Shown here: positions 42,241-62,055 of the stretch, one piece after another
Layout: the number at the start of each line of letters is the position of its first letter
Numbering within the stretch: position 1 is the stretch's first letter
DNA from: Candidatus Zhuqueibacterota bacterium
GTDB taxonomy: Bacteria; Zhuqueibacterota; Zhuqueibacteria; Thermofontimicrobiales; Thermofontimicrobiaceae
Assembly: GCA_049322915.1 (NCBI GenBank)
Contig: JBMOPW010000004.1
Span: 99,343-163,342 of the forward strand
Direction: 5' to 3'
DNA length: 64,000 bases
Position numbers and translations under genes: made by a program
Notes under the pieces: model-generated
What the model was told of the DNA's origin: nothing
Seen by the model: the letters and a program-made list of their open reading frames with translations, nothing else
Databases searched by the model: none

Positions 42241-42284
42241 ATCGAATCCGTAAAACGAGCTATCTTTAATATATTATATCAATA

Positions 42285-44917: not shown

Positions 44918-45008
44918 TAATTACTCCGCCTGATCATAACAATAAAATTCGTATCCTGTATGAATTTGATCTCGTCCATGCTCTGCCACATAATTATACG
45001 TATCCGAA

Positions 45009-45926
45009 TTACATGCCAACAAATTCCGGGCCGTTTTTGATATGCAGAAAAAGATTCACGCCTTCAGGCTCCTGGCCAACACGAATATTTTTCGGATCGA
45101 TCCCGCTCGATGTGGCCAGCGCGATGAGCCTGTCCGCGCTGCGATGATTCAGGTGCCAGTCGCCCACAATTTCCATGTAATTGCGCGTTGGATTTTCCGT
45201 TGAAAAGTTGCCGATCACCATTTCTCCATTTTCTTCCAGGAATGATGTATATCGGTTGAGCAGCCGAACGAACGTGTTGTCATCGAAATAGTCGAAAAGT
45301 CCGCCGGACCAGATGAGGCGATAGCGTTTGTCCGTCCTGAATTTGAACGCGTTTTTGTTCATGAAATTAATGTGGTTAAGATATGGCGAACAAATGGTTG
45401 TCGCGTATTCTATTGCTTTCGGATCGAATTCGATGCAATCGAACATCATTCTTCCATTGGAATTGGAGCTGTAAAAATCGAGCAAGTCCCTCGCCGGCCC
45501 GCTGGCTACATTCAGGATATGTATCGGACTGTCGGTTTTGCAATTGGACTTTTCTATTTGGTTCAGCAGATTGATAAAATAATCTTTCCTGTTGCGAACC
45601 GCTCTCGGTGCATTATGCCAGTGGAAATAGTGATCCCAATTCACGAGATCCGGAACAGGGGACAGATGCCCGGTATAAATTTTGTCGATAATTTCGAAAT
45701 CGCCGTTATAACCGTGTGGCTTTTGAAAACTGAATCCTTGCATGGTTTCCGGGCCAAGGGCCGGGCCGAATGCCTCCCGAATGGCAGATAAATCGTTCGT
45801 ACTGACATCTCCGCTTACGATTTCATTGTTCAATACTCGCAGCCAGGAATTCAGTTGGCGATATTCCGATTTGACCGGACCTCCGCGGTCCACCATGTTC
45901 CGGATGAAGGAGATGTGTTGCTGCAT
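45009..45926 (-). CDS. Class I SAM-dependent methyltransferase, PhcB-like
   Basis: KPHGYNGDFEIIDKIY, AVRNRK, ILNVASGPAR, GLFDYF, IGNF; AAGGA RBS before MQQ. Confidence 0.8.
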   Translation of the reverse strand: MQQHISFIRNMVDRGGPVKSEYRQLNSWLRVLNNEIVSGDVSTNDLSAIREAFGPALGPETMQGFSFQKPHGYNGDFEIIDKIYTGHLSPVPDLVNWDHYFHWHNAPRAVRNRKDYFINLLNQIEKSNCKTDSPIHILNVASGPARDLLDFYSSNSNGRMMFDCIEFDPKAIEYATTICSPYLNHINFMNKNAFKFRTDKRYRLIWSGGLFDYFDDNTFVRLLNRYTSFLEENGEMVIGNFSTENPTRNYMEIVGDWHLNHRSADRLIALATSSGIDPKNIRVGQEPEGVNLFLHIKNGPEFVGM

Positions 45927-45949
45927 GGGTTTCCTTTCATATTTTAATT

Positions 45950-46402
45950 TCATAGCTGCCCTGTCACAAGTCGATAGAGAATAATTGCCAATGACCCTGC
46001 TGCAAAAATTCCGAAAAAATAAAGATATTCCATTCCAAATCTTTTCCATGAGAATTTGGATTTTGCCCAATCCGGTATTTCCCCTTCAAATGTTACTGTA
46101 AGGCTGCCAACTCGAAATAAAATATATGCCGGTAGGTAGAAAAACAGGATAAGTAAAGGGACTCCAAAAATTAATTGCGGTATTTGTGCAATAAGAGCAG
46201 GTAATAACCCTGAGGTAGCAATAAAAAGAACTCGTTCATTTAAAAAACGTTTGTTAGAATATTCAGGTTTTTGCTCATTATAAGTTTGATTCTGTTGGGG
46301 ATCCAGCTTTCTTAAACAATCACGGCAAGAAGGTTTTTTATCCCAAACAAATGAATTCCTGAACGATAATTTTGCACCACAATAAAAACAATTTTGAGCC
46401 AT
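45950..46402 (-). CDS. Zn-ribbon membrane protein
   Basis: CFYC...CRDC followed by about three TM segments. Confidence 0.6.
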   Translation of the reverse strand: MAQNCFYCGAKLSFRNSFVWDKKPSCRDCLRKLDPQQNQTYNEQKPEYSNKRFLNERVLFIATSGLLPALIAQIPQLIFGVPLLILFFYLPAYILFRVGSLTVTFEGEIPDWAKSKFSWKRFGMEYLYFFGIFAAGSLAIILYRLVTGQL

Positions 46403-46517
46403 AATTAACCTTTCAATTTTATAATTGCAAATATTTTTAAAATTAGAATTGATTTAATACCAATATCACTTCGGACCGATGACAACAACGACAATAATAA
46501 ACAGTACTATTATCTCC

Positions 46518-47201
46518 CTACAGAAATAAATTCAATCCAACAGTCGGTTCCATCCACATCCGCGTTCCCCCGCTGTAATGATAAAAATGCCCGTTTATCT
46601 GCAAGTCCAGGACGATCTTTTCGTGAACCTGCACCATACCGCCACCTCCCAGCGAGGTGCATATAGTCGATCCTTCATCCTGAAATTTGATTGTGCCCCA
46701 ATAGGTTTTTTCATAACCGTATGAGCCTTCCGGCACAGGAACTATTGCATAATAATTCGCTTGGGTAATGCCCTTTCGGTTATGATAGCCAACACTAGCT
46801 CGCAGGTATGGAATCAGTTTGTCTTTTGGGGGGAATAAATATCTCAATCCAAAGTTGAATTGTGAAATACTGCCGCCCGTTGTTTCAAGCTTTTCAAAAT
46901 CAGCGTCGGCATCGATGTCGCCAGCTTGTCGGACTAATTTTTCATCCGATTTCAAAGTCGATTTGAAAAAGGAAAAATCAATGATGTATTTTGAGTTAAC
47001 TTGATAGGCGAAGCTGAAACCAAACTTTTTCAAAGCTACGTATTTGTCAGTATCATCTCCTTTGTAGGGCACAAAAATAGAGAAGGAGGGGCCGAGCATG
47101 AACTTTTTAATGTTTGAAGGATTGTTGGCTTGGCCCAAAATGTTTTCAGAAATAAGCAATACAATGACGAATATGACAACAATACAAATCCTGTTTTTCA
47201 T
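46518..47201 (-). CDS. Outer-membrane beta-barrel protein
   Basis: Signal peptide; amphipathic strands (FNFGLRYLF, IPYLRASVGY); C-terminal VGLNLFL. Confidence 0.7.
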   Translation of the reverse strand: MKNRICIVVIFVIVLLISENILGQANNPSNIKKFMLGPSFSIFVPYKGDDTDKYVALKKFGFSFAYQVNSKYIIDFSFFKSTLKSDEKLVRQAGDIDADADFEKLETTGGSISQFNFGLRYLFPPKDKLIPYLRASVGYHNRKGITQANYYAIVPVPEGSYGYEKTYWGTIKFQDEGSTICTSLGGGGMVQVHEKIVLDLQINGHFYHYSGGTRMWMEPTVGLNLFL

Positions 47202-47215
47202 TTAGTATTCTCCGA

Positions 47216-47791
47216 TTATTTAAATTTATCCATAACCAAAATGGACTGAGCCTTCACCTCATCATTCGTTTCTTTCCCGCTAACCTGGCTTACCTTTTCT
47301 TTGAGCATGTCATACGTCATATTAATATACCCAAACGCTTGTTTCGGTTTGTTGGTGAACAGAATCCCTTCATATTTTGCAGCGATTGAATATGCTACAT
47401 TGGATTCTGTTTCTCCCTTTAGCTGTTTTAGTTTTTCCAAATCAATGTTTTTCAGAATGACGCTGAATCCTTTCCAGGCTTCCATGCGTTTTGCATCGTT
47501 TTCTGATGAGTCCATAATAGCCAGCAAATCTTTGACGATGACTGTTTTCAACCCATTTTTTTGTTGTAACAGCGGAAGCACCTCGCCCATTACGCCCATG
47601 GCTGAAAATCCTTTGGCTTTTTCTATTTTGCGGACTAGCTTTTGGTCATTCTTTGTCAGATCAATGAAGTCATTCACTTTTTTATGAACATCAACATCCG
47701 GGGATGAGAATTTCAAACCAGCTTGTTGAGAGGCGCAACCGAGAATTAACAATGTTATTATAATTGAGAAAAGTTGTTTTATTCGAACCAT
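47216..47791 (-). CDS. Putative lipoprotein
   Basis: Lipobox ILGC; AAGGAG RBS. Confidence 0.65.
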   Translation of the reverse strand: MVRIKQLFSIIITLLILGCASQQAGLKFSSPDVDVHKKVNDFIDLTKNDQKLVRKIEKAKGFSAMGVMGEVLPLLQQKNGLKTVIVKDLLAIMDSSENDAKRMEAWKGFSVILKNIDLEKLKQLKGETESNVAYSIAAKYEGILFTNKPKQAFGYINMTYDMLKEKVSQVSGKETNDEVKAQSILVMDKFK

Positions 47792-47827
47792 GATGTTACT
47801 CCTTCTGTTTTTAAGGTTTATTAAAAT

Positions 47828-49012
47828 TTAGCGATCTGTATAAATTGTTTTGTTCCCAATGGTAATGGAGTTTTCTGTAACTGAAGGCCTTCCTTCTCCG
47901 TTTTTGAACAGGTCTACTATCTGGCCATATTTTTTCGTAATTGGAACAGATATTTTACGAACTGAGCTGCTTGTTTCAATTTTCAAAAACTCATCGAATA
48001 CATCATTCTTAATATATTCCATTTCAATGTGAGTTACCAATCCTGAAAGATGTCTTGTATGGAACCTGAACCAGAGGGTTTTATACTTTTGCCAGGCAAA
48101 TAATCGCACCGATGCGTTCTTTTGATGATCAGGATTCATTTGGTTAATGAGTTCAAAATAGTTTTTATCAATTTCTTCTTTTTGTGTTTGGTACAAATTA
48201 TGGTAACGGTCTGTCTGGGCCATCATCGCATCGAAACCCATATTGGAATAAATGGCAGGTTTATTTCGGTCGAGATAGTTCAGTATGCTGACAATTGTGT
48301 TGTATGATTTCGTAATCTCATTCTTCTTTGCAGACTCCTCTATTCTAATTTTTTCCATTTTGTTTTTTGCTTCATCAATATTCTGCCCGTTTGGGTATCT
48401 TTTTAAATACAAGTCAAATGAAGCAACCGAATTTTCTTTTGATGCTCTTGTGAAAAATTCATTTTCCGGGTATTCGAATGATGTGTCTGCCTTGGCTTTT
48501 TGATAGGAGACGTCGTATAGTTTTTCCTGGGCTTTGTTAGAATATTTACCTGAGGGATTTTTTTCTAAAAAGCCTTGGTAGGAAGTGATCGAATTGGTTT
48601 TGCGTGCTAACGAAAAATCCAATAACTCCTTGGCTTGGGACAAATAACTGTGTTGAGGATTTTTACTGATGAAATTTTTCAATGTATCGATATTGGGATT
48701 GGCTTCCAATAGGTTAAATTCGTATTTTTCTATTTTCAATTTTGCGCTATCGGTCCAGATTGTCCCCTCATTTTCTGTAATGAAATTTTTATACAATTTC
48801 AAATCAAAGGTATCTTTAATGCTTTCAAAATTGATTCGGGCAATTTCATTCCTGGCAGCAATTGCATACTTACCTTCCGGAAATTCTGAAAGAAAATTAG
48901 TGAATGCTTCCACCGTATTTATAGATTTCGCTTCATCGAAAGCTTTTTTAGATTTGCTGCATGAAAATAGAATAATAAATATGAGTAGAAAAATAAAATA
49001 TTTTGAACGCAT
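47828..49012 (-). CDS. Lipoprotein with five ~35-aa helical repeats
   Basis: Lipobox LFSC; repeats of F..A...N(T/S)...(F/Y)..FL...P.G.Y...A. Confidence 0.7.
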   Translation of the reverse strand: MRSKYFIFLLIFIILFSCSKSKKAFDEAKSINTVEAFTNFLSEFPEGKYAIAARNEIARINFESIKDTFDLKLYKNFITENEGTIWTDSAKLKIEKYEFNLLEANPNIDTLKNFISKNPQHSYLSQAKELLDFSLARKTNSITSYQGFLEKNPSGKYSNKAQEKLYDVSYQKAKADTSFEYPENEFFTRASKENSVASFDLYLKRYPNGQNIDEAKNKMEKIRIEESAKKNEITKSYNTIVSILNYLDRNKPAIYSNMGFDAMMAQTDRYHNLYQTQKEEIDKNYFELINQMNPDHQKNASVRLFAWQKYKTLWFRFHTRHLSGLVTHIEMEYIKNDVFDEFLKIETSSSVRKISVPITKKYGQIVDLFKNGEGRPSVTENSITIGNKTIYTDR

Positions 49013-49086
49013 GATAAGCTCCCTTAGCGTATTTTGGGAAATCTAAATGAAATCAGTTTTTAAGTCCTGAATTTTGAGATGATATT

Positions 49087-49791
49087 TTAAAACAAAAATC
49101 CCAGCTTCACCATCATCACCGAATTGGCAATCTCGGCTTCGTCCAGCACTGAACCCATTCCGCGATAGTAACGGGCGTCGGCGGTTATGCCAGACGGGAA
49201 TTCGATGCCAATGCCGAGGATATAGCCAAATTCGGTGCCTTCGAATTCATCGAAATCCTCTTCCTCCTGGTCGGAGTCGTCGCCGGAACTGACTTCAACC
49301 ATAAGTTTGGAACTGGACAAAAACGAAATCACCGGGCCGCCGAACAAAACAAATTGAGATGTGTAGCTCTGGTTCAGTTTTTTCAGTTTCAGGAGAAGCG
49401 GAATTTCGATATAGTTGAGCTTGTATACAATTTTTGTATCAAAGTTGTAACGCTCGCCTGTGTAATCATCCCTGAATGAAATATCACCGGAATAATTAGC
49501 GCCGCGCATGGTATAATTAAATTCAGGCTGGAGCACGAGCACGTCGTTCATTCGATATTGAAAAAAATACCCGAATGAGAATCCGAGCCGCGAACCTTTG
49601 GTGAACGATCCGCCGGACATGCCCATTTCGCTGAAAGCCGAGCTGAATGCATCGACCATTTCTTCAGCGTCCTTGCCTATCCAGTTAGCCATGTTAAAAC
49701 TGGATGAAATACCGTGTTTGATCGGCGAGGTTTGAGCAAAAGAGAGTGTGGCGCATAAGAGCAGAATTAGTGTGCAAGTAGTTTTCTTCAT
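49087..49791 (-). CDS. PorT/porin-family outer-membrane beta-barrel
   Basis: Signal peptide; LQPEFNYTMRG, LNYIEIPLLLK, GPVISF, DARYYRG; C-terminal Phe. Confidence 0.8.
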   Translation of the reverse strand: MKKTTCTLILLLCATLSFAQTSPIKHGISSSFNMANWIGKDAEEMVDAFSSAFSEMGMSGGSFTKGSRLGFSFGYFFQYRMNDVLVLQPEFNYTMRGANYSGDISFRDDYTGERYNFDTKIVYKLNYIEIPLLLKLKKLNQSYTSQFVLFGGPVISFLSSSKLMVEVSSGDDSDQEEEDFDEFEGTEFGYILGIGIEFPSGITADARYYRGMGSVLDEAEIANSVMMVKLGFLF

Positions 49792-50055
49792 TGTTTCTCC
49801 TAAGTCGGATAAACCGGAAATTGCAAAACTCAATAACCAAATAACATGCAAATTACAAAGCCAAATTTCAAAAAATCAAACTCGGACAGGTTCGTCTGGT
49901 TGTTCATTTTTGAAAAATGTTTGAAAATTGATATTTTGTAATTTGGAATTTATTTGATATCAGCTAAAGGCTTGTGCGTCCTCTGGCGCATTGAATTTTA
50001 TTTTTAAGGAACTAACATTTTTTTAAATATTTTCTCACTGAAATCAACTATTTTT

Positions 50056-50256
50056 CTAAATCCCTTCCCCTCGACTAATCGCTTCCATCACAATTCTTCT
50101 GGCGGCTCGGGCGCCACCGTCGTTGGGATTAAGCTGCAGCGCTTTTTCGTAGCAGGCCAATGCTTCACGATAGCGTTTCTGGTAGGCAAGGTCCTGTCCT
50201 TTGTAAAACCACTGTCTGGCTTCTTCTGCTAAATTGCCTTTGTTTTTAAAAAACAT
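50056..50256 (-). CDS. Small single-TPR protein
   Basis: WFYKGQDLAYQKRYREALACYEKALQLNPND; GGAGG RBS. Confidence 0.7.
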   Translation of the reverse strand: MFFKNKGNLAEEARQWFYKGQDLAYQKRYREALACYEKALQLNPNDGGARAARRIVMEAISRGEGI

Positions 50257-50444
50257 AATTTCCTCCAATAATGTTAACATATTCAATAGTTATTGTTTTA
50301 ATTATAAGTACATATTTTTGCACTGTACAGAGAAATGTCCAAAATAAAAAAGGAACTGGAAATTGGACTTTTCATTTCCCATTTTCCGGTTCCCAATTTT
50401 CCGTTAAACTAATTCAGAGGATTGTGCTCTTAGTTTCTATTTGA

Positions 50445-50921
50445 TTACTGAATACTGTCTCCTGTGGAAGAGAAATCCTTAACCAGGTGGCACTTGTCGA
50501 GTTTTTCCCTGCCTTCAACAGCGCTGAGAAGGACAAGATTAGTGCGGGCTTTCAGAAATCCCATTTTAACCTGCTGTTCCAGGTAATAGGTTTGGCCGGC
50601 TTTAAGATTCAGAATCTGCTCGCTCTTGTTTTCGGATTGGGACATCAATTGATGCCGGCCCGGGTCCAAAAGCATGTACAGGTAGCGTTGGCCGGTGGTG
50701 GTGCCCACTTTTTTATTGTCGCAGAAAACATCCATGCCCACGGCGAATCCGTATGTTGTGGGGCGAATAACGTACACGAGCGCTTTGTCTTCCGGCACGG
50801 CCACGGCTTTGGCGCGTTGATCCAGGGCAAGGTCTGCCTTGGGCATGGAACCGGCGCAGGAAAACAGAATCGAACATACAAAGAACAGGAAGAGTACGTA
50901 GATTAATTTTTGTCTTTTCAT
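50445..50921 (-). CDS. DUF2846-type lipoprotein
   Basis: Lipobox LFSCA; KALVYVIRP, LDPGRHQL, AGQTYYLEQ. Confidence 0.8.
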   Translation of the reverse strand: MKRQKLIYVLFLFFVCSILFSCAGSMPKADLALDQRAKAVAVPEDKALVYVIRPTTYGFAVGMDVFCDNKKVGTTTGQRYLYMLLDPGRHQLMSQSENKSEQILNLKAGQTYYLEQQVKMGFLKARTNLVLLSAVEGREKLDKCHLVKDFSSTGDSIQ

Positions 50922-51013
50922 CAGGTGCTCCATTTATCTTTAAGAAGCATGAAAACGATCGTTGCAAGCTGTTTGAATTTAGCGTATTCGATTTATTAAT
51001 TTTGTTTTGGAGA

Positions 51014-51628
51014 TTAGAAAAGGTACCGCATGTTCAACAGCACACCTTTGGAGTTGGGCACGTACGAAAATGAATATTTAAGATTTTCAGGAATGAAGCC
51101 GGATAAATTGCTTTCATTATAAATCGTTTCCCATTTATGCTGTGACGCGCCGTAAATTCCGCCGATGATCAAACCGCCGATGGTGAAACCAATGGTCATA
51201 TTTCGAATCACTTCATCGCCGTTGGTGACGGTTTCGCCGTTCATCAGGGCTTGATTTTCAGCGTCGTTCACGCCCTGCACAGCGCCGAGAAAACCGGACA
51301 ATCCGCCGATCAGCGCGCCCCAGATGGCGTATTCAGCAGCTTTTGTTCCGCGGCTGATTTTGATCAGGTAGACGTTATTGAGTCCGATATTTTCTTCATT
51401 GGAAATTATACCGGGGGCGGTGGCAGGTTTGAAGGTCAGCACGTCATCCAAAATGCTCAGGCTGTTGACATTGTACAGCGTGGTGGACTCGTCATTGAGG
51501 TAAATCATCGCTTTGGAGTACTGGTGGCTTCCCGGAAAGAATAATTCGGCGGAGGTTCCATTCTGAGAAAATGCCTGCACAGAAAGAGAAAGTAGAATGA
51601 GTAAAGAGAGCGTGATTTTTTTCTTCAT
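51014..51628 (-). CDS. Exported/membrane protein with glycine-zipper helices
   Basis: Signal peptide; GALIGGLSGFLG and GFTIGGLIIGGIYG. Confidence 0.65.
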   Translation of the reverse strand: MKKKITLSLLILLSLSVQAFSQNGTSAELFFPGSHQYSKAMIYLNDESTTLYNVNSLSILDDVLTFKPATAPGIISNEENIGLNNVYLIKISRGTKAAEYAIWGALIGGLSGFLGAVQGVNDAENQALMNGETVTNGDEVIRNMTIGFTIGGLIIGGIYGASQHKWETIYNESNLSGFIPENLKYSFSYVPNSKGVLLNMRYLF

Positions 51629-51855
51629 GTAGCGTTACTCCTGAAAAAAAATTATTAGTAAATGAAGTGATTTAGTTATTTTTAAATTTTTTCCGGATTG
51701 AAGTAAAACAAAGGCTGCTCAAATTCGAGATAATCCATTGAAATCGGATTTGTATGTTTGTTTCACGTATCTGAATAGAGCAGCTCTTTGCTCGATGTGA
51801 TGGAAGGTGCGGGTCCATCATCGTGTTAAAATGCATGAAGCATGTCAACGTAATG

Positions 51856-51884
51856 AAGACGTATGAGTTGTGAAGATTTTGCAA
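51856..51884 (-). promoter_or_regulatory. ECF-type promoter motif, copy C
   Basis: Minus strand TTGCAAAATCTTCACAACTCATACGTCTT. Confidence 0.7.
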
Positions 51885-52065
51885 AAAGTTTGAATTGATG
51901 TAAATATTTTAATCATTTGGTCTGGTCAATTATGTTTTGATGATGCGAATTTCCGATTCATACCATCAAATTCATGAGCGAGAAATTTGTACTCTTAATC
52001 CGGTTGATTCCCCGGAATTAGAGAACTGGTGGAAAGTGAGAATCGATTTCCCGCTAAGATCCAGA

Positions 52066-52380
52066 TTAATAGTTGCCGGACAAAAGAAGCTCCCATAAGG
52101 CATACCTCGCTCCGGTAGAACCGCATTGGGGGCATTTCATGGTGTCTCTTCGGGCTGAGTGAGGTTCACAATAGATTGTGCCACAATCGTAACAGGCAGC
52201 AAGTCCTGTGTGTCCGTGGGCGATATACCAGGTCGGTTTCTTTTGTTCAAACGTTGTCCGCCAGTTTGCGTCAACTTCGTATTCACACCAGTAATTGCAT
52301 TTGAAACATTCAGCGCGAAGTTTAATTGTTCTATTAGGACGAGCCAGATCTGCACCGTTTTGTCTTGTCTGAATATTCAT
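52066..52380 (-). CDS. Small Cys/His-rich Zn-binding protein
   Basis: CFKC...CYDCGTIYCEPH...CPQCG; GGAGA RBS. Confidence 0.6.
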   Translation of the reverse strand: MNIQTRQNGADLARPNRTIKLRAECFKCNYWCEYEVDANWRTTFEQKKPTWYIAHGHTGLAACYDCGTIYCEPHSARRDTMKCPQCGSTGARYALWELLLSGNY

Positions 52381-52481
52381 TGTTTATCTCCGGAATAATG
52401 TGTGCAATATTTTCACTATCAAGCTTTTAAAAAATGGTTTGGTATACCCACTAGGACTGCGTTTGGGTTTGGTTGCCAGAA

Positions 52482-52814
52482 TTACAAACTTCGAAATCCA
52501 TCCAGCGTTATTTTTGCTTTTTGATGTCCCTGCCGTGAAGCCTTTTCCATTAACTCCACCGCTTTATCGAAGCTCTGCGGAACACCCTCGCCGGCGCCAT
52601 AGAGCACGCCCAAATTAAACTGCGCTTCAGCGAGACCTTTGCCGGCAGCTTTCTTATACCAATACGCGGCCTCGCGTAAATCCTGATTGACTCCTTTGCC
52701 GTATTCGTAGGCTTCGCCAAGTTTATTCTGGGCAAGCGCATCGCCCTGTTCTGCTTTTTCTTTCAACGCCTGAATGTTGGTGCCGCCGAAGATTTTTTTG
52801 AAAAAATTTGACAT
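52482..52814 (-). CDS. Sel1-repeat protein
   Basis: AQNKLGEAYEYGKGVNQD...WYKKAA and AQFNLGVLYGAGEGVPQ. Confidence 0.85.
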   Translation of the reverse strand: MSNFFKKIFGGTNIQALKEKAEQGDALAQNKLGEAYEYGKGVNQDLREAAYWYKKAAGKGLAEAQFNLGVLYGAGEGVPQSFDKAVELMEKASRQGHQKAKITLDGFRSL

Positions 52815-52900
52815 GGGTTTGTCCTAGATTTTATTTTAGCTCTCGATTGTTATTACTTAAGATTTATGAAAACGGGCATACATGGAATTCGGTCGATTGA

Positions 52901-53809
52901 TTAACTTGTTTTTCGAACGATCCATCCCAATAAACCAAAGAGAAACTCGAGTCCGCCAAAAATGATCGCACCAATCCAGATGGTATGTTCAGCGATCGCG
53001 GTGGCGAATATTCCAAGCAATAAAATGCTAAGCCCGATTCCAATATGTTTGGTGAATTTTTGTAAATCATCGCCTTTTTTGATTACATCACGTTTTTCAA
53101 CATTGGTCGTAATTTCGGACTGGCAGGCAGGGCAAGTTTCAATCGAGTTAACGACCAGACTCCCGCACTTTGCACAATCGATGACATAGTCTTCATTTTC
53201 AGCTTTCCCATTTTCAGGTTTAGCGGATTTGAATTTCCGGGTGAGCAATGTCCTCGCTTCGGCGAATTTCTTTTTTTGCAGATCAGTAAAATCTATTGCA
53301 TAAAGTGAGCGCTTGTGCTTGCCTTTTTGCAGGGTGTCGCTACTCAGTATAAAATCGATACTCCCGGCGCCGGAACCCTTCACATTGAATAAAATAGCTT
53401 TGATTTCACTGAATAAAAATTCTTTGTCGATTTTATTTGGGATTAAATTCGAAGTTAAATTTAGCAGACCTGATGTGAGTTTACCGATTGCGCCGGAGCC
53501 GCCAGTTTTAATTTGAATTTTATTTTCATAAATGTGTAATTCAGTAAGCATACCTTTGGCGATAAGCAACGGCTCAGAATTATTGGGACTGGATTGCGGC
53601 TTTTCAGGCGCATGTTTCAAATTATCTTTTCGAATTGTTTCCTGAACAGGAATTTTCGATGTATCCCCCTTAAACAATTTCCCGCCACATTTTTCGTTAA
53701 ATTTTTTGGGATAGGATTGAACATTTTCATGAATTTCAGAACAGACTCCGATGCTACTGTCGTAATAGTCGCAATGGGGGCAGTAGTCTTCCATTGATAG
53801 GTTAGCCAT
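52901..53809 (-). CDS. Membrane-anchored protein with Cys-rich N-terminus, beta-rich (PH-like) middle domain and Zn ribbon
   Basis: CPHC..C..C; CAKC...CPAC; two C-terminal TM helices; GAGGGGAG RBS. Confidence 0.65.
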   Translation of the reverse strand: MANLSMEDYCPHCDYYDSSIGVCSEIHENVQSYPKKFNEKCGGKLFKGDTSKIPVQETIRKDNLKHAPEKPQSSPNNSEPLLIAKGMLTELHIYENKIQIKTGGSGAIGKLTSGLLNLTSNLIPNKIDKEFLFSEIKAILFNVKGSGAGSIDFILSSDTLQKGKHKRSLYAIDFTDLQKKKFAEARTLLTRKFKSAKPENGKAENEDYVIDCAKCGSLVVNSIETCPACQSEITTNVEKRDVIKKGDDLQKFTKHIGIGLSILLLGIFATAIAEHTIWIGAIIFGGLEFLFGLLGWIVRKTS

Positions 53810-53876
53810 TTAAAATCTCCCTCGATATTAGTAAAATGTTATGTCTCTTTTTGGAGAACCGTATACTAACATAAGA

Positions 53877-53905
53877 AAGACGCATCAGTTGTGAAAATTT
53901 TGCAA
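53877..53905 (-). promoter_or_regulatory. ECF-type promoter motif, copy B
   Basis: Minus strand TTGCAAAATTTTCACAACTGATGCGTCTT; 26/29 identical to copy C. Confidence 0.7.
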
Positions 53906-54032
53906 TTATTCAAAAGTGAATGAAAAAAAGAGAGGGTTCCGGGTAAGTTTGTGAAGAGAAATCGAAGCATTAAAACGAAAATGGATTCTTGGGGATATAG
54001 AGAGGCAACAATAACTGCTCATTTAAAAAAAG

Positions 54033-54569
54033 CTAATTTTTCTGACTGCCGCCAACCTCCATATTCGCGATCTTCCGGCCCCGCAAATACAGCACGTACA
54101 CGCCTGCATCGAGATCGTCTATTTTGATTTCGCCGCCGGGGAGCACCGGGTAGCTGCACAAAAATTCACCTTTGGGGGAATAGATTTCCAGTTTGTCGTG
54201 AATGGTCTGCAATTTGAACGTGACGCGACCGCCATCATGAACCCACGGTTTTCCAAGCTCTTCCACCGGCGTGCTGCGCGTGGCAAACTGGAATGGCACA
54301 ATTTCAAGGCTGAGAATAATCTCTTTGGCTTTTGTCAGTGTATCTCTGACATGCGTCTTGCGTTTGACTACTTCTTTTCCAATTTCTTCGAACACCAGGT
54401 TTTTAATTTTCAATTGCAATTTATTCAATTGCCTTTTGTTCTCTCTGTTCAATTCCCTGTTTTGCTGCAAAAAATCTTTCAGCCCTAATCGGTCTAATTC
54501 TTTCTGAAGCTCGGAAATTAGTTTGTCTCTGGAATTTTCGTTTAAAAAATTCTCATCGTTTTTCATCAT
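54033..54569 (-). CDS. Soluble putative anti-sigma factor (helical N-terminus, small beta-sandwich C-terminus)
   Basis: Starts 10 nt after the sigma stop; no TM helix; FATRS linker; GEIKIDDLDAGVYVL motif. Confidence 0.55.
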   Translation of the reverse strand: MMKNDENFLNENSRDKLISELQKELDRLGLKDFLQQNRELNRENKRQLNKLQLKIKNLVFEEIGKEVVKRKTHVRDTLTKAKEIILSLEIVPFQFATRSTPVEELGKPWVHDGGRVTFKLQTIHDKLEIYSPKGEFLCSYPVLPGGEIKIDDLDAGVYVLYLRGRKIANMEVGGSQKN

Positions 54570-54579
54570 TTTTCCTCTG

Positions 54580-55158
54580 TTATATTTTTCCAAGTTTTTT
54601 CAATATGCAGCGAAATAGTTTTACCTTTTGCCTGTGCCAGATGCTTCCGGCAGTTGTGGGCGGGCAGTTGTTTCGTTGGGCAATTTTTTTCAGTGAAAAG
54701 CCATGAACATAGTCCAGCAGTATGTTTCGAATATGTTCCTGTGGAAAATTGCTGATACACGAATTCAGCGCCAGTTCCAGTTCGGCTTGTGTGATGAGCC
54801 CGGGAGACTCGGTTTGCTGCCAGTTTACAAATGAAACCAGGTCGATGTAACTCTCGCCATTGGCAGACTCGGAGTTTTGAAACATGGTGCCTGTTTTTTT
54901 TCTGCGCAGGTAATCGCAGAAAGCGTTTCGGCAACAAATGAACAGATAATCTTTGAAGCTTTTTATTTTTTTGCCGGCATTCACGGTTCGGATGATTTTC
55001 AAAAAGACGTTTTGCACTACATCTTCAATATCACCCCGATCGCGGATTTTATCGATGAAATAGGCGTACGTCCTCTCCAAATATCGCTGGAAGAGTTCAT
55101 TCAAAGATTCGATATCGCCAAGTTGCTGATATTTTTTAAGTAATTCTTCGTCTGTCAT
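54580..55158 (-). CDS. ECF RNA polymerase sigma factor
   Basis: MTDEELL, DIEDVVQNVFLKI, FKDYLFICCRNAFCDYLRR, GFSLKKIAQ. Confidence 0.88.
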   Translation of the reverse strand: MTDEELLKKYQQLGDIESLNELFQRYLERTYAYFIDKIRDRGDIEDVVQNVFLKIIRTVNAGKKIKSFKDYLFICCRNAFCDYLRRKKTGTMFQNSESANGESYIDLVSFVNWQQTESPGLITQAELELALNSCISNFPQEHIRNILLDYVHGFSLKKIAQRNNCPPTTAGSIWHRQKVKLFRCILKKLGKI

Positions 55159-55330
55159 GTTTTTTTTTGAATCGATTCATTGTGCTAATTTTTTGGATAG
55201 CCCCGGGGTGCGGCGATCCCCATTGGTCTTTACACAGATTTTCCATTGTGTCTGCTTCGGCCGCGAGCAAACGCAAAGATCGATTTGGCCTCCCGGGTAT
55301 TCCAATCGGGTTCTGTGGGTTCCGATTATA

Positions 55331-55359
55331 AAGACGTTTGAAACGGAAATATTTTTCAA
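55331..55359 (-). promoter_or_regulatory. ECF-type promoter motif, copy A (upstream of the sigma gene)
   Basis: Minus strand TTGAAAAA-N15-CGTCTT, same spacing as copies B and C. Confidence 0.55.
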
Positions 55360-57461
55360 AAATTTTGCCAGAGCGAAGGGAGCATCCAAAAAAGATGTCC
55401 GCTTTCCAGAAATCGGGCTTGGGCCGCCCATTTTAACCTTGTCTGCTGCAAGGCTTTGGAATACGAAAACTGGTTGGCAAACAGGTTCCAGTAAAAATCC
55501 ATGGAAAATTCGGCAGAGGCGCGGTCATCTGTGACGGACATATTCCCCAGAAATGCTTGCCCCCCGGCTTTTAAAAAAGCAGGAGCAAATCCACAGAAGG
55601 AAAGTGAGGTAGCATTATTTCCGGCGCTGTTGCAGCCGTTCAAATAGAAAAAAAGCGGAGGCGCAGATATTTCAGAAAATATATCATTTGCGGTCACGGC
55701 TTGTGCGCGACCTGATTTACACTGTTTTTCCCACAAAAAAATGTGTGTTTTCAGGGAAGCCGGGTCCGGGCTGCAATGCCCGGCGAAATGGATGATATGA
55801 AAATGATTCGATCTCAGTGATCTCATCACAGAACCGAAATCGGATTCGTGGGATAAAAGCGTGGAAATTTTCAGGCTCAGCCCGTGCTCCCTGGCAATTT
55901 TGTGGAACCGGTTTTTCAACAAAATTATTTCATTGTCCACAAATGGAATGTCCGGCGGCGTATCCGAAGCGATGAGCAAAATATTTATTGGGTCGTCCGT
56001 GGGGAAATGATAGACATCCGTCACCTTTCCATCGACCAGTGACCGATATATTGCTTTGCGCAGCGAAACGAAGGAGTCGCCGTTGTGGAGAATTTCAAAT
56101 GGAAATCGAATCAGTTCCTCGATTTCAGATGAAAAAACAAGGTCGCTATTCTTTTCTGTGGCGTAAAATTTACTGAATAAATCCAGAGAGTCCTGTGTTG
56201 GAAAAAGGTCTGAAAATAATTTTTGCCCAAGTTTTTTAAGCGATTGAATATTCCCGAAATCACTAATGATGTAGCGATGTGGATCGAGCGCATTATTCAA
56301 TTGGTGGACTTCAGTGATATCGCCGTTTTTGGACGTGCAGATTTTCTGAAATTCTTCCGTAAAAAAAATCTTCAATTTTTCTGAGGACTCGACACCGTAT
56401 TTAGGCGATTGGACTGATGGCGGCTGTTCGGAAATGTTCTCCGCGATCCAGGTCCTCAAGAAATAATTATTCAGGGCGAATTTTTGATCGGAATTTTGTT
56501 TTGCAAATCCCAGCCATGAGAGCGTGTTAAGCCGTTTTTGAATATGGTTGATTGAAATATTCAGTTTTGGTGCGATGGCTTCGATATAGGATGGTTCAAG
56601 ATGGATCAGGTTGGCAAGAATTTGATAATCCACCTGGTCAAAATATTGGAAGTCGTCTCTGAAAAAAAGGTCTAACACATTGTTTTGGCGAATGGTTTCA
56701 ATGGTGGCTTTTAGATTGCCCTGGTCAAAAAAGTAAAAACAAATCATTTGAACTAAAAAAGGCAGGCAGCCGGCAAATTCGATGATTTTATCCTGTTCCG
56801 CCACATCCCCAGTGCAGCGTCGAATGAGCGCCCGGGCTTCATCTTCGTCCCACGGCGTGATATAATCCGGGGGAGAGAACGCCTGCAAAAATGGCGCTAA
56901 AAAATGTGTGGTGCTGAGTTTGTCGTACGAGGCCAGACCATGATTGGAAGCCAAAATAACGGAAAGCATCGGCTGGTTCAAAAGAATGGCTCGGAATTGA
57001 TGCAGGAATTGTTCATCCTGCACAGCGACGCGAAACAATGCTTCGGACTCGTCGACCAACAACACAACGTGCACGGATTTTTTCCTGCACTGACGAATGA
57101 GGCAGCGAAGGTCCCAATAGAGGGATTCGCGTTCGAAGTGGTCGAGATCGAATTCAATTTCCAACCGGCTGAATTCAAATTCAGCCGGTTCGAGGGCGTC
57201 GATGAAGCTCAACTTCAAATCATAAACAGAATTAGCGCCGGACACATCCCAAAACAGAGGAATCATTCTGTCCTGTTTTCGGTACTGGCGCTGCAAGTAA
57301 CGGAGCAACGACGTTTTGCCCATGCGTCGCGCGCCAATGAGCCAGTTGAATTGCCGCTGTAAAGGCAGGTATTTTTGGATCAGGTCTTTACGGCCAATAA
57401 AGTCCGCGTCGTTTTTAATCCAGTCGCCGACGATAAACGGATTCTTTTGATATTCGGTCAT
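55356..57461 (-). CDS. STAND-like ATPase - winged helix - CHAT (caspase-like) protease
   Basis: NPFIVG...FIGR, Walker A GARRMGKTS, Walker B LLVDESE, GCLPF, wHTH; CHAT motifs FPFEILH, ILLIASD, IIHFAGH, FYLNGCNS, FSMDFY. Confidence 0.88.
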   Translation of the reverse strand: MTEYQKNPFIVGDWIKNDADFIGRKDLIQKYLPLQRQFNWLIGARRMGKTSLLRYLQRQYRKQDRMIPLFWDVSGANSVYDLKLSFIDALEPAEFEFSRLEIEFDLDHFERESLYWDLRCLIRQCRKKSVHVVLLVDESEALFRVAVQDEQFLHQFRAILLNQPMLSVILASNHGLASYDKLSTTHFLAPFLQAFSPPDYITPWDEDEARALIRRCTGDVAEQDKIIEFAGCLPFLVQMICFYFFDQGNLKATIETIRQNNVLDLFFRDDFQYFDQVDYQILANLIHLEPSYIEAIAPKLNISINHIQKRLNTLSWLGFAKQNSDQKFALNNYFLRTWIAENISEQPPSVQSPKYGVESSEKLKIFFTEEFQKICTSKNGDITEVHQLNNALDPHRYIISDFGNIQSLKKLGQKLFSDLFPTQDSLDLFSKFYATEKNSDLVFSSEIEELIRFPFEILHNGDSFVSLRKAIYRSLVDGKVTDVYHFPTDDPINILLIASDTPPDIPFVDNEIILLKNRFHKIAREHGLSLKISTLLSHESDFGSVMRSLRSNHFHIIHFAGHCSPDPASLKTHIFLWEKQCKSGRAQAVTANDIFSEISAPPLFFYLNGCNSAGNNATSLSFCGFAPAFLKAGGQAFLGNMSVTDDRASAEFSMDFYWNLFANQFSYSKALQQTRLKWAAQARFLESGHLFWMLPSLWQNF

Positions 57462-57478: not shown

Positions 57479-60400
57479 TCAGTTCGTTGTAAAATCGGTC
57501 CAGTGGCTTGCTGATTTTTCAGGTTTCAATTGCGTCTTCGAATTTTTTAGAATGTTTATAACGTCCTGTTTTTTTATGGTTCGGCGATGTTCATCCAGCG
57601 CCTGGTTGATTAGATTCAGGCACAGCACCTGGATCAGATAGGGCTTGCATTTGGTGGCCTCCAATATGGCTTCCAGGGCTTCGTTTTTAAATTTGAATAT
57701 TCCCTTCACCGGCACATAGATAAGCTTTTTTGCGTCTTCCCGGGAGATTGGTTTTAATTCAATTAATGTGAAAAGATTCCACCAGGGGCTTTCCGGGCGA
57801 TTCCAGTTATTAATGTAAGAAGTGCCGGAAATAATGGCGGCGAAATTCATGGAAAATTCCTGCATGAAAATTCGGCGCAGTTGTGCATGGATCGCCTGGT
57901 CGTATTGGTTCATGGCATCGGCTTCATCGATGAGAAGTACGATTTTAACCGTTTTAATCGTACTTTGATTCATGTGAAAAATTATCTTCCGGAAATCATT
58001 ATTAAAATCGCGGTAGTTGTAGTTATCTTTTTTATCCTGAATTCGAAGGCCACAGTCTTTTGGTACATTGTCCACCTGTTCAACAATATCGTGCATCATG
58101 CCGTGAAAAAACTCCCACTGACCAATGCCCTGCAAATCTACAAACACCGGGATGAATTTGTAATCCGGATCATTTTTTTCCGTGAGCTGGTTTTTAATCT
58201 GCAACAAAAGCGAGGTTTTACCAATTCTCCGTTCGCCGGTTATCATGATGCTGTTGTTGTGCACGATGGAAAGAATTCGGTTTTGGATTTCGTTTCTTCC
58301 AAAAAAAAGATTTTGTTTGAAAATGGGTTCACCGGCAATATACGGATTGAACCGGCGCCGGCGAATGAGTTGATTGATTTTGTAATAACGATAAATGAAG
58401 AAGAGAGCGATTAGCGCCAGAACCAGGCTGAATAAAAACCACTTGAACCAAAAACGTAAAATTAGCGGTGTCGTTTCCAAATGAATTTGGACTGAAGCGA
58501 ATTCCGATGACATGAGTCCATTGGGAGTTGCTGTTTTAATTTCAAAGGTGTGATTTCTGCCAGGCTCTAATTCTGTGTAAATTATTCTGTTATTGCGGGT
58601 GAATTCGCTCCATTGGCCCGGTTTTTCATCCTTGATAATTCGATAGGAATATCGCAATGCCTGTGAAGGAAACGACGAATGGTAGCCGAAAAATTCTATG
58701 GCGCAGACAGGGTCATTATAACTGCGAAAGATAGGGCGCTGCAATGCTGATTCTTCGTAAATGTCATTGCCGATCTGGCAGTTTCGTATGGTGATGACAG
58801 GTGGGATGGATTGCATTTGAAACTGGAGGAGTTCACCCTCAAGGGTGATGCCGGTTATCTTGTTTTTATCGTCACACAAAAAATTCGGAGAGAAAACATC
58901 GTCAAATTTACTATGAAAATCGATTTCAGGGAAAGCGTAAAGGTTCCCGTTGTCAAAATAACTTAAACCGTAGTTCGAGGCGAGAATTGGCTGGCCATAA
59001 GAATCGAAGCCAATGCTTTTTATGTTGCTGCTAATTACTTTTGAATTACTGCCCCAATGCGTGCACGTATCGCCTTTCAAAAACGCGATGCCTTCATCTA
59101 CTGAAAGCACCCAGAGAGAGCTGTCCCTTGCCGGATGCAGTGAAAGAAGGTTTGAAATTTTTTCAATGGATGGATTCGATACAGTTCTGAAAACATCGTC
59201 CTCCAGAACAGCAATGCCGGTGTTGTACGTAGCAACCCACACTGTGCCATCGAGCGTTTCGGCAATGTCGACGATTTCATGACCCGGCAGTCCCTGGTCA
59301 ACCGAATACCGCGTTAATGTGTTTCCATCCCAGCAAGCCAGGCCGGGGCTGATCAACCTTTCATGCTCCAGGAAAAAGTCCCTGAAATTTAACGACTTTC
59401 CCATGAACGCTTCTCTCAAGTGAGCATCGGACAAAATGCACTCCCGGGGCAGAAATTCGAATTGCTTCCCATCCAATCGCGCGTAATCCGCATTGCGAAG
59501 GCACACGTATAGTTGATTATCGCTGCTCTCACCTATTCCCCAAATGGACGGATGGGGCAGGTTTTCTTTATAAATTCTGATTCCATTTTTTTGGAGCAAG
59601 ACCAATCCATTGTCCAGCGTTCCCATCCAAAAATTACCGGCGTTATCTTCGTAAAATGTAGAGATGGAGCGACCCGCATTTTTCATGGCGTGACTCTGGT
59701 AAAATCTGCCATCTTTCCACATGAACAAACCAAAATCCAGGGTTCCAACAAACAAATCACCGCTTTTGCTTCGGTGCAATGCGGAAATTTTATGGGATGG
59801 CATTCCAAAGTCGCTGTTGTAATGGATGAGCGTGTCCTGGTTTACATAGAATAATCCAACGCTGTAGCTGCCAACCCATGCGCCGTTATCCGGATCATTG
59901 TTTATTGACGAAATATTATAAATATTTTTTCCCTGGGATTTTTTATAATTCCTGTTTGAATTAAAAGAATAAAAGCAATTGGTATTGTAGAAAAAATCAC
60001 CGTGGCTCCATTCAAATTGATCCGCGAGACCGGAGTCATAAATTTCAGGGATTTGAAATGAAAATCCGAGTATGTTAATCTTGTTTTTCGGAATGTCAAA
60101 TTTGAATATGCCGCGGAGAAGAGTTCCCCAGAGTTCGTTATTCAACAAGTGGAGATTTTGGATGTTGTAATAATAGGATCCGGTAAATTGAAGCCATGGT
60201 TTTTGGGTGAATTGGGAATTCTCCGATTTGAACAATGTGCTCGATCTGGTGCCAAACCAGACTGTGTTGGTTTCATCCACAAGCTGTGAAGTTACGATAA
60301 CTTCAGGTGAAAAGGAATGGTGCTCGGCGAATTCGGAATATTCAATTATCGGGGATTTGGGATTATTCAAATGCATGAGATATGAGTGCGCGCCGATCCA

Positions 60401-61744
60401 AAGTCGGTTTTGGGAGTCGACGAAAATGGTGGAGATGCATTTCGCTGGAAATTCACTTTCCGGAATTGGTCTGTCGAATTTTTCCCCATCCCAGCGAAGA
60501 ATGCCATTCCCTAACGTAGCGAACCAAAAATTTTCATCGTAATCCTGGGCGCAGTCCGTCACTTTAATGTTTTTAAGGCTGTCGGGCCATATAAATCGCG
60601 AGTTTTTCTGACCATCGAAATAATAGATTTGATTTGCGCCATAGCTGAACCAGACTTTGCCTGATTTGTCTTCGAAAATCAAATTATTATTTAGAATTTC
60701 GTATGGCGAGGGATTTGTTGCCTGCGAAGGTATTGGATAGGAACTGATTTGTGGATTTAGGTATTTATAAATACCCGTTGAAGTAGCAAACCAAATATTT
60801 TGAAACCTGTCCTGGAACATGGTTCCACGTTCAGTATTTACGATCGAAAAATTGTGAAGCTCATTATTTTCCATGCAATAAATTGATTCATTTTTTAAAA
60901 ACCAGATCCTGCCCTGTAAATCCTCCATGAAAAAGTCGAAATAATAACCCCCTGAAAAAATATTTTGTGTTTGAAAAACTGTCTTAAGCTCCGGGAACTG
61001 TAAAATTTTGTTGCGTGTTAGAATGAGTGAATATTTTTCATCTTTGCTCACGAAATAGCTTAGAATGTGTTGATTATTTTTGAGAAGTGGGGTTAGATTA
61101 TTTCGATCCTGTTCACTAAAGAGGTAAACCCCGGAACGTGCATAAAAGAAATGATAGTTCTGATCATCGATTTGGAAAATTTGGAGGATATCATCCCGAA
61201 GCAAATCATATTTTTCAGTGAGATTAATGCATTCTGTTCCATCAAATCGAAATAACCCAACGTGGTTGACGTCAATCCATATCCGTTCGTTTCGATCTTT
61301 GAAAAGGGAGGTGAAATGCTCTTTTCGGAAAAAAGAATTGAATTCGAATGGATAAAGCGATTCGAAATCATATATCCAAATGCCCTCGTAATTAATCGCA
61401 ATCCAAAGTTTGCCCTCATCATCCTTGATTACTTTCTGGATGAATAACGATGGAAGCTTTTCGTTGATTTCCAGTGGAATGAATTGCAGACCGTCATACC
61501 GATAAATACCGTCGTTAATGGTGACGATAAGGAGGTTGCCTTTATTGTCTTCCAAGACGTGCCGAATTTCATTTGTTGGCAAGCCGTTACTTGTTGTGAA
61601 ATGCGTCCACAGGGAAGGATTGGAAATGGGATTTTCTGCTCCGATTGCCGGGGCTAAAAAGAACAAGGTGCCTGAAAAACCAAAAAGCAGAAATCGAAAG
61701 AAAATGAAGAATGCTTTAGCGAACATATTCCGAATAAATTTCAT
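57479..61744 (-). CDS. Transmembrane receptor: beta-propeller (Reg_prop) repeats + YYY domain + TM helix + cytoplasmic STAND-like ATPase
   Basis: Signal peptide; many D..G.lWigT..G repeats (GLPTNEI, GMPSHKI, GLPGHEI); LRYSYRI...W...YTELEPG YYY domain; TM helix; NPYIAG...FFGR, GERRIGKTS, LLIDEAD. The start is uncertain (61843, 61744 or 61726). Confidence 0.88.
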   Translation of the reverse strand: MKFIRNMFAKAFFIFFRFLLFGFSGTLFFLAPAIGAENPISNPSLWTHFTTSNGLPTNEIRHVLEDNKGNLLIVTINDGIYRYDGLQFIPLEINEKLPSLFIQKVIKDDEGKLWIAINYEGIWIYDFESLYPFEFNSFFRKEHFTSLFKDRNERIWIDVNHVGLFRFDGTECINLTEKYDLLRDDILQIFQIDDQNYHFFYARSGVYLFSEQDRNNLTPLLKNNQHILSYFVSKDEKYSLILTRNKILQFPELKTVFQTQNIFSGGYYFDFFMEDLQGRIWFLKNESIYCMENNELHNFSIVNTERGTMFQDRFQNIWFATSTGIYKYLNPQISSYPIPSQATNPSPYEILNNNLIFEDKSGKVWFSYGANQIYYFDGQKNSRFIWPDSLKNIKVTDCAQDYDENFWFATLGNGILRWDGEKFDRPIPESEFPAKCISTIFVDSQNRLWIGAHSYLMHLNNPKSPIIEYSEFAEHHSFSPEVIVTSQLVDETNTVWFGTRSSTLFKSENSQFTQKPWLQFTGSYYYNIQNLHLLNNELWGTLLRGIFKFDIPKNKINILGFSFQIPEIYDSGLADQFEWSHGDFFYNTNCFYSFNSNRNYKKSQGKNIYNISSINNDPDNGAWVGSYSVGLFYVNQDTLIHYNSDFGMPSHKISALHRSKSGDLFVGTLDFGLFMWKDGRFYQSHAMKNAGRSISTFYEDNAGNFWMGTLDNGLVLLQKNGIRIYKENLPHPSIWGIGESSDNQLYVCLRNADYARLDGKQFEFLPRECILSDAHLREAFMGKSLNFRDFFLEHERLISPGLACWDGNTLTRYSVDQGLPGHEIVDIAETLDGTVWVATYNTGIAVLEDDVFRTVSNPSIEKISNLLSLHPARDSSLWVLSVDEGIAFLKGDTCTHWGSNSKVISSNIKSIGFDSYGQPILASNYGLSYFDNGNLYAFPEIDFHSKFDDVFSPNFLCDDKNKITGITLEGELLQFQMQSIPPVITIRNCQIGNDIYEESALQRPIFRSYNDPVCAIEFFGYHSSFPSQALRYSYRIIKDEKPGQWSEFTRNNRIIYTELEPGRNHTFEIKTATPNGLMSSEFASVQIHLETTPLILRFWFKWFLFSLVLALIALFFIYRYYKINQLIRRRRFNPYIAGEPIFKQNLFFGRNEIQNRILSIVHNNSIMITGERRIGKTSLLLQIKNQLTEKNDPDYKFIPVFVDLQGIGQWEFFHGMMHDIVEQVDNVPKDCGLRIQDKKDNYNYRDFNNDFRKIIFHMNQSTIKTVKIVLLIDEADAMNQYDQAIHAQLRRIFMQEFSMNFAAIISGTSYINNWNRPESPWWNLFTLIELKPISREDAKKLIYVPVKGIFKFKNEALEAILEATKCKPYLIQVLCLNLINQALDEHRRTIKKQDVINILKNSKTQLKPEKSASHWTDFTTN

Positions 61745-62055
61745 CAAGCAAAGCAGTAAAATGAACGACAGAAAAGAACTAAGGCTAAAAAAAATAGGAA
61801 ATAAAGACATGGAAATGGTAATAAAAATTTGTCTAAAAATCAAGGAAAAAGTTTTTCATTACTGGGTTTTTTATAGATCAGCCAGGTTCTATGCGTAACA
61901 TTTTAAAATTATATAAGATAGACTTTTTCTCTTGTATCTCACATTATTTAATCAAATCTTCTGCAAAGAATCTCACTTAATTTAGCCAAAATTTAATTTC
62001 CACTTTAGTTGTTTTTTTCTTATCTTGTTTCTGTCAATCAACAAAATAGACTTTT

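Follow-up and report, generated by a model that had tools for sequence, protein, structure and literature searches.

Which sigma factor reads a short motif that stands three times within a few kilobases, once ahead of a sigma gene of the extracytoplasmic function (ECF) type and twice ahead of unrelated cargo genes, and what would such an arrangement switch on? The question is raised by a 64,000-nucleotide (nt) stretch of Candidatus Zhuqueibacterota bacterium (assembly GCA_049322915.1, contig JBMOPW010000004.1, positions 99,343 to 163,342), here called the window. The motif, TTG[C/A]AAAA-N15-CGTCTT, is matched exactly at 55331-55359, 53877-53905 and 51856-51884, in every case on the minus strand and pointing at minus-strand genes; a sequence-only reading of the window had placed three equally spaced, gene-facing ECF-type promoters there, and the pattern match bears out each of these particulars. 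Our analysis indicates that the three sites, named P1, P2 and P3, are very likely promoters of the adjacent ECF sigma factor, at which RNA polymerase would read GCAAA or GAAAA (-35 to -31) together with CGTC (-13 to -10) and would start about 7 nt past CGTC. It is also likely, though held somewhat less firmly, that they are the cognate promoters of this sigma factor in a strictly local regulon made up of itself, its partner and exchangeable cargo, which would come on once a caspase-like CHAT protease encoded next to the sigma gene probably cuts the partner protein of the sigma factor. The elements concerned are the following:

55331..55359, minus strand: P1, predicted ECF promoter with -35 TTGAAAA and -10 CGTCTT; predicted start near 55325
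53877..53905, minus strand: P2, predicted ECF promoter with -35 TTGCAAA and -10 CGTCTT; predicted start near 53871
51856..51884, minus strand: P3, likewise a predicted ECF promoter and a duplicate of P2, with its start predicted near 51850
54580..55158, minus strand: ECF sigma factor of 192 amino acids (aa), with Sigma70_r2 and TIGR02937 above cut-off
54033..54569, minus strand: soluble partner protein of 178 aa, a probable anti-sigma factor, 10 nt past the sigma gene

Along the minus strand the order is receptor gene, STAND-CHAT gene, P1, sigma gene, partner gene, P2, three cargo genes, P3 and twelve co-oriented genes reaching to 42285. P1 lies 173 nt ahead of the sigma ATG and points at the sigma and partner genes, P2 lies 68 nt ahead of the first cargo gene and P3 228 nt ahead of the second cargo block. 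An unguided repeat search over 42200-55500 gave P1-P3 as the first family listed. With one mismatch allowed the window contains four matches against a shuffle mean of 0.16, and four or more were reached in none of 100 shuffles, a test which is post hoc because the pattern was derived from the sites themselves. In the genome of 6,251,638 bases the strict pattern occurs four times at a spacing of 15 nt, the fourth copy lying within an open reading frame (ORF) on contig C20, and zero or one time at each of 11 other spacings. Between 42000 and 62600 no further copy of at least 14 bits was found at spacings of 14-17 nt, except two weak ones within genes, and Rfam gave no match over 42000-64000.

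The motif is also found outside this genome. A metagenome scan with the partner alignment returned four loci, L022 to L025, with partner identities of 73, 56, 50 and 54%, respectively. In all four the motif stands 3' of the partner gene at the same 15-nt spacing, and three of these extend far enough to show cargo genes after it; ahead of the sigma gene it is present in both loci that reach so far (L023 and L024), where the CHAT-sigma-partner gene order is retained as well, and L023 has a third copy further downstream. When the pattern was slightly loosened after inspection of these loci, to G[CA]AAAA-N15-CGTCT, the counts in L022, L023, L024 and L025 were 1, 3, 2 and 1 against shuffle means of at most 0.03, and were reached in 0, 0, 0 and 2 of 300 shuffles; spacings of 12-19 nt other than 15 gave one match in total. 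An alignment of seven cargo sites shows TGCAAAAT and CGTCTT without change, a spacer that differs between lineages and upstream T/A tracts that are partly retained. The cargo that follows the motif is wholly different, namely ankyrin, Lcl_C and propeller proteins in L023 and proteins without assigned family in L024 and L025. In the two places where the sequence-only reading had advised looking, its own genome and homologous loci, the motif has one exact copy beyond the three sites in the former and is kept in all four of the latter.

The -35 part of P1 includes the TGA stop codon (55356-55358) of the upstream CHAT gene, and that of its counterpart in L023 lies within the last CHAT codons. In L024, however, the counterpart is found about 130 nt past the CHAT stop, beyond a palindromic element and fully intergenic, and a comparison of the window with L023 shows an 11-nt insertion that provides a new -35 at unchanged spacing. 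Judged from these alignments P1 is not a coding artefact, because the L024 copy is intergenic and the insertion in the window recreates the -35 without altering its distance. The sigma ATG of both L023 and L024 follows CGTC by 7 nt, whereas the window has a 173-nt leader. In known ECF promoters the start is expected at about that distance behind CGTC, and the position of the ATG suggests that the sigma mRNA of L023 and L024 may be leaderless. The leader in the window (55158-55325) is without a Shine-Dalgarno sequence, and an out-of-frame ATG precedes a run of nine A. A frameshift in this run ahead of the sigma ATG was considered and rejected, as the relatives have no indel there.

As to the sigma factor itself, a scoring matrix built from five sites of L023-L025 (a six-site version was also made) ranks the window sites 1, 1 and 4 among 12,500,036 genome positions. 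When the 500 nt upstream of each of the 30 Sigma70_r2 genes in the genome are compared, the motif is present ahead of this sigma gene alone (21.8 bits; the next reaches 13.0). The protein, which has 11 relatives at E<=1e-30, carries Asp at the position of RpoE Asn84 and Gly at that of RpoE Arg171. The former residue, Asp82, is the one invariant column across 14 sigma rows. Todor et al. report that in mutagenesis Asp at the Asn84 position favoured -13C/-12G and that the base at -31 depends on the Arg171 position, with Arg giving C (bioRxiv 2020.06.23.168245). About half of ECF sigma factors autoregulate. The residue comparison comprised 25 of the genome's 30 sigma factors, five long ones being excluded. 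Gly at position 171 is found in this sigma factor alone among the 25; the candidate promoters of three sigma factors with Lys171, which are unvalidated pattern matches, show C at -31, and P1-P3 carry A. The link of the three promoters to the sigma gene at 54580-55158, including autoregulation, had been proposed from the letters of the window, and it is supported by the conservation of the motif, by the leaderless-type ATG in two loci and by the uniqueness of the motif among the 30 sigma genes.

A scan of genome contigs with the sigma factor returned four loci, all unrelated. Candidate autoregulatory promoters of four other ECF sigma factors were noted at C4:109081 (about 9700 in the window), C45:112513, C28:22988 and C35:126300, with the -35 box 16 nt ahead of [CT]GTCT. 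The same genome has a second locus with a sigma factor, a zinc-finger-type partner and CHAT at C14:51328-56254, in which CHAT is apparently split into two ORFs and the motif is absent.

Between P2 and P3 there are three differences in 29 positions, every one of them in the spacer, and their similarity spans 38 nt (84%) and then ends, in agreement with the earlier description of their flanks as otherwise dissimilar. The identity of 26/29 was therefore counted correctly; it does not hold as separate evidence, however, because P2 and P3 are copies of one ancestral promoter, which makes their identity a single piece of evidence. The history of these copies can be followed in a relative about 90% identical to the window, of which contigs from the runs X3 and X4 (same variant pattern) were aligned to it. 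This relative keeps P3 as a 75-nt island (51820-51894) with four differences, upstream of which 603 nt are exchanged for 71 and downstream of which the DNA is unrelated; its P2 has one change, in the spacer, with -35 and -10 intact, and its second copy is identical to the window P2 at 29 of 29 positions. At P1 the match stops at 55322, just beyond the predicted start, the leader being exchanged and P1 itself free of gaps. In L022 the partner gene runs directly to a P3-type leader, which is shared with the window P3, and in L023 the second cargo promoter lies in a duplicate of about 400 nt. On this comparison, cargo promoters would multiply by duplication, and we consider it somewhat more likely than not that new cargo blocks enter the regulon when a cargo promoter is duplicated ahead of them. 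The P3 leader contains one further feature:

51797..51821, minus strand: small hairpin in the P3 leader, the stem of which is retained in L022

A structured leader RNA was considered for P3 and is not supported beyond this one hairpin, with z = -2.6 in the window and 0.06 in L022. L023 has a palindromic 96-nt element three times between cargo genes (1790-1885, 5668-5763 and 9489-9584), two copies of which head the duplicated promoter region.

What would set the sigma factor free? Two genes upstream of P1 enter the argument here:

55356..57461, minus strand: STAND-like AAA ATPase, winged helix and CHAT protease in one protein of 701 aa, no signal peptide
57479..61843, minus strand: membrane receptor of at most 1454 aa with Reg_prop propellers, Y_Y_Y and a cytoplasmic STAND-like AAA ATPase

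The receptor has a transmembrane helix near residue 1132, and the winged-helix-like part of the STAND-CHAT protein is a weak match. Its CHAT residues His558/His562 and Cys610 are invariant in all 22 aligned homologues (22 of 29 close matches). The structure model of the partner consists of a helical N-terminal half and a C-terminal beta-sandwich half, between which lies a linker of low confidence (predicted local distance difference test, pLDDT, <50); within this linker Thr97-Arg98 are invariant in 33 of 33 proteins, itself included, and the protein contains no hydrophobic segment. Fold searches with it returned generic helices and beta-sandwiches with a best Z of 6.8, the beta-sandwich matches staying at Z<6. 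Its Atlas matches stayed below 0.9, and among these a resemblance to tails of the type IX secretion system (T9SS) is to be taken as a lead only.

From these parts the following circuit can be proposed. An extracellular signal would activate the receptor STAND ATPase, which would in turn activate the STAND-CHAT protein; CHAT would then cut the partner at its invariant Thr-Arg linker and free the sigma factor. At P1 the freed sigma factor would yield more sigma factor and more partner, that is, amplification with a brake, and at P2 and P3 it would turn on the cargo. As no copy of the motif was found upstream of the receptor or protease genes, these would remain outside the loop. The sequence-only reading had spoken of a regulon with positive feedback: the regulon is supported, and the purely positive loop is not, since P1 would also transcribe the partner 10 nt past the sigma gene, which, if an anti-sigma factor, would give the loop a built-in brake. 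That signal, receptor, STAND-CHAT protein, partner cleavage and sigma release form one chain falls, in our estimate, a little short of an even chance. More tentative is the wider picture of a transmembrane route to transcription resembling nucleotide-binding leucine-rich repeat (NLR) receptors, in which a propeller-STAND receptor would act through STAND-CHAT to cut a new soluble class of anti-sigma factor, and the promoter would serve as a plug-in socket, copied ahead of newly gained blocks of ankyrin, Sel1, tetratricopeptide repeat (TPR), Lcl and envelope cargo, giving each lineage its own inducible protective kit.

A search of 167 phylum genomes with the partner profile gave a match in the window's own genome only and none in a same-genus genome (94% complete), from which it follows that the sigma-protease module is patchy across the phylum; named homologues of partner and protease come from candidate division KSB1. 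Seven of the protease and partner homologues agree in the length of their longest contig, a circumstantial point. The STAND-CHAT protein is matched in 31 of the phylum's 166 other genomes, and in nearly every case the match is to its ATPase part. Pairs of a membrane ATPase and a cytoplasmic ATPase were also seen in other families of the phylum (L048, L054, L059, L061 and L064), where they end in a Ser/Thr kinase-like domain and not in CHAT (Pfam was run on L054 only), so that CHAT and sigma factor would be one output option of the pair. A distant sigma relative, G017 (L029), has a soluble +1 partner with a C-terminal domain weakly similar to that of the window partner, and no motif.

There are several observations that speak against this interpretation, either of the promoters or of the switch. 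The matrix ranking is not fully independent because its sites were chosen with the window-derived pattern, and rank 3 (23.5 bits, C16:174131-174159) is near-equal in score and faces the 3' end of an opposite-strand gene; this copy may be a chance match or an antisense promoter, and it means that strong matches also occur without obvious target. Asp at the Asn84 position is present in 12 of the 25 aligned sigma factors, and for one with Leu171 the candidate promoter carries A at -31, again an unvalidated pattern match, so that cross-reading by other sigma factors is possible. L023-L025 are mutual kin and the DNA of L022 is 75% identical to the window, which reduces the four loci to two or three lineages. 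The partner has no known anti-sigma family or fold in Pfam, NCBIfam, PADLOC or fold searches. Cleavage directed at Arg is a property of separase and is not known as a general trait of CHAT proteases. Finally, the distant sigma relative G015 (L020, 15262-16661) has a soluble +1 partner with a double zinc finger and neither CHAT neighbour nor motif; the C-terminal domain of that partner is weakly similar to that of the window partner (probability 32%).

How much weight these points carry depends on which other explanation is drawn from them. The sites might be promoters of this sigma factor without the partner being a protease-released anti-sigma factor: its role might be that of an adaptor or effector, or the protease might act on the sigma factor or on some other target. 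We regard this as a serious, if minority, possibility, because neither an anti-sigma family nor a solved fold matches the partner, the sigma factor itself is cut by a downstream caspase in Haliangium (bioRxiv 2023.06.23.546230), and the same STAND pair carries a kinase in place of CHAT in other phylum genomes, making the output interchangeable. Cleavage of an anti-sigma partner, on the other hand, accounts better for a partner placed at +1, about 10 nt past the sigma gene, in the window and in L023, for the constant order of CHAT, sigma and partner in L023 and L024, and for an invariant Thr-Arg located in a flexible linker between two domains, and it has a precedent in Csx29/Csx30/CASP-sigma (PMC10028731). 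We regard it as improbable that some other sigma factor of the host, and not the adjacent one, reads these sites as ECF promoters: with 30 Sigma70_r2 genes in the genome, 12 of the 25 aligned sharing the Asp that favours CG at -13/-12, and with ECF279 and ECF21 motifs near-identical or close to that of P1-P3, candidates exist, yet the motif accompanies this sigma factor in all homologous loci and stands ahead of no other sigma gene. Moreover, none of the top 15 matrix matches outside the island is both intergenic and facing a gene in sense, which speaks against a host-wide sigma factor, since this would have targets elsewhere.

Two further explanations deny the sites a role as ECF promoters. 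That the repeats are scars of recombination or duplication, attachment-like and bracketing the first cargo block, would fit P2 and P3 being 38-nt direct repeats with a mostly common spacer, the relative's copy that equals the window P2, the direct passage from partner to P3-type leader in L022 and the 400-nt duplicate in L023. Duplication accounts for the origin of P2 and P3, however, and not for the conservation pattern, as between lineages the boxes and their distance are retained and the spacer is not; in addition, the boxes are not inverted arms, the P1 spacer differs from that of P2 and P3, P1 fixes the position of the sigma ATG in two loci, and no integrase is among the 22 proteins scanned between 39281 and 63152, all of which makes scars without promoter role very improbable. 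Lowest of all we rate the idea of an operator through which a repressor or activator would control housekeeping promoters, or of a chance pattern in AT-rich DNA. The island is indeed AT-rich and STAND-CHAT has its weak winged-helix-like part, but at the sites' score only 0.0004 copies are expected in 13 kb of island composition, the motif is without symmetry, sigma70-like promoter sites occur at chance level (51 against 48.6), as does the outcome of a terminator scan, and the geometry equals that of known ECF promoters.

Promoters of the adjacent ECF sigma factor thus being the preferred assignment, the locus can be set beside known systems. In type III-E CASP, with Csx29 (TPR-CHAT), Csx30 and CASP-sigma, there is likewise a cytoplasmic CHAT protein, a soluble sigma partner and an ECF sigma factor, and the locus also contains three copies of the motif of its sigma factor (PMC10028731). 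In contrast, no Cas7-11 or CRISPR-associated gene was found among the scanned island proteins (Pfam, PADLOC), CHAT forms one protein with an AAA ATPase, a membrane propeller-STAND receptor appears to be the trigger, the 178-aa partner gave no Csx30 match in fold searches, and the targets are envelope and repeat proteins that vary. In Myxococcus xanthus, DdvS/DdvA combines an ECF sigma factor with four local GTAA-N16-CGT promoters, comparable to the several local ones here, and resembles the predicted circuit in its autoregulation, in a regulon limited to the island and in having a CHAT domain (PMC6061681, PMC11506125). DdvA is, however, a transmembrane zinc-binding anti-sigma factor with a periplasmic TPR-CHAT (same sources), whereas CHAT in the window is cytoplasmic, ATPase-fused and separate from a soluble partner free of zinc motifs; the -35 differs from that of DdvS, and the cargo is neither CRISPR nor a cyclic oligonucleotide-based antiphage signalling system (CBASS). 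By analogy, the circuit would work like CASP and DdvS/DdvA and is a member of neither.

ECF54 also has a CHAT neighbour, a small +1 beta-sandwich protein and no classical anti-sigma factor, and differs in being actinobacterial, with subtilase and TPR-CHAT and the promoter GTATCAG/CTCC (PMC7826278), which is not matched here. Against Pfam at E 0.05 none of the 33 partners matched a carboxypeptidase-regulatory domain, which is the type of +1 domain in ECF54, and the beta-sandwich in the model of the window partner has matches at Z<6 only; DUF5056 and DUF1822 were likewise not matched. The predicted motif of ECF279, TTGCAA/CGTCTAA, is almost the same as ours (TTGCAA/CGTCT in common, the last two bases different), and the anti-sigma factor of that group is a DUF5056 protein with two transmembrane helices; ECF21 (GCAACC/CGTCT) and ECF116 (TGAAAC/CGTCTAAT) have the -10 in common with P1-P3, and all three differ by membrane anti-sigma factors, other hosts and other neighbourhoods (PMC7826278). 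A further comparison is with the EACC2-caspase systems with ECF sigma factor and DUF1822, in which a caspase-family peptidase, a sigma factor of the ECF type and a small partner have been proposed as a proteolytic transcriptional switch (Kaur et al., PMC8195603); here no EACC2 was detected, DUF1822 is absent in Pfam scans, and paired STAND ATPases with a propeller receptor are present. The promoter geometry equals that of the GTAA-N16-CGT and TGAAAC/CGTC ECF types.

By its sequence the promoter itself is of an ordinary ECF type, near ECF279 and ECF21. What appears to be new is the variant of CHAT/anti-sigma/ECF signalling, in which the protease is cytoplasmic and fused to an ATPase and the partner is soluble, and in the literature consulted, mostly outside subscription papers, no description of the STAND-CHAT/sigma module or its promoter was found. 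The value of the promoter lies in its use as a read-out, as it marks what an uncharacterised circuit of uncultured bacteria puts out, so that each step becomes accessible to a reporter in a laboratory host. This bears on the control of transcription by CHAT proteases outside CRISPR systems and on the question of signal transfer across the membrane by paired STAND ATPases, and the duplicated promoter ahead of unrelated cargo shows how such a regulon may be rewired.

The genes that would be switched on form two blocks:

52066..53809, minus strand: cargo block 1, between P2 and P3, encoding a Cys-motif membrane protein of 302 aa, a Sel1-repeat protein of 110 aa and a Cys-rich protein of 104 aa
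42285..51628, minus strand: cargo block 2, 12 co-oriented ORFs encoding exported and lipoprotein-like proteins, DUF2846, TPR, an outer-membrane beta-barrel, a methyltransferase and HEAT repeats

The gene for the 104-aa protein is absent from the relative of about 90% identity. Of the 15 cargo proteins, judged by hydropathy and by eye, seven have signal- or lipoprotein-like N-termini and two have membrane segments; PADLOC gave weak partial matches only on island proteins. We would guess at an inducible protective or envelope kit. P3 may drive block 2, a stretch of 9 kb inside which no copy of the motif was found; its reach over this block is putative, as further promoters could lie in gaps of 244, 364 and 193 nt. 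Repeated intergenic elements at 49825-50001 and 44232-44401 interrupt this block and have copies elsewhere in the genome.

The region has a GC content of about 41% against 48.8% in the genome. The 3' end of recQ is duplicated, at 62629-63158 and 40905-41434 (97% over 530 nt), so that its two copies bracket the whole 21-kb segment, and the second recQ copy is joined to what is left of a transposase at 62211. At the edge of the island lies the C-terminal part only of a peptidase C69 gene (41453-42169), and a similar stretch is found on contig C27.

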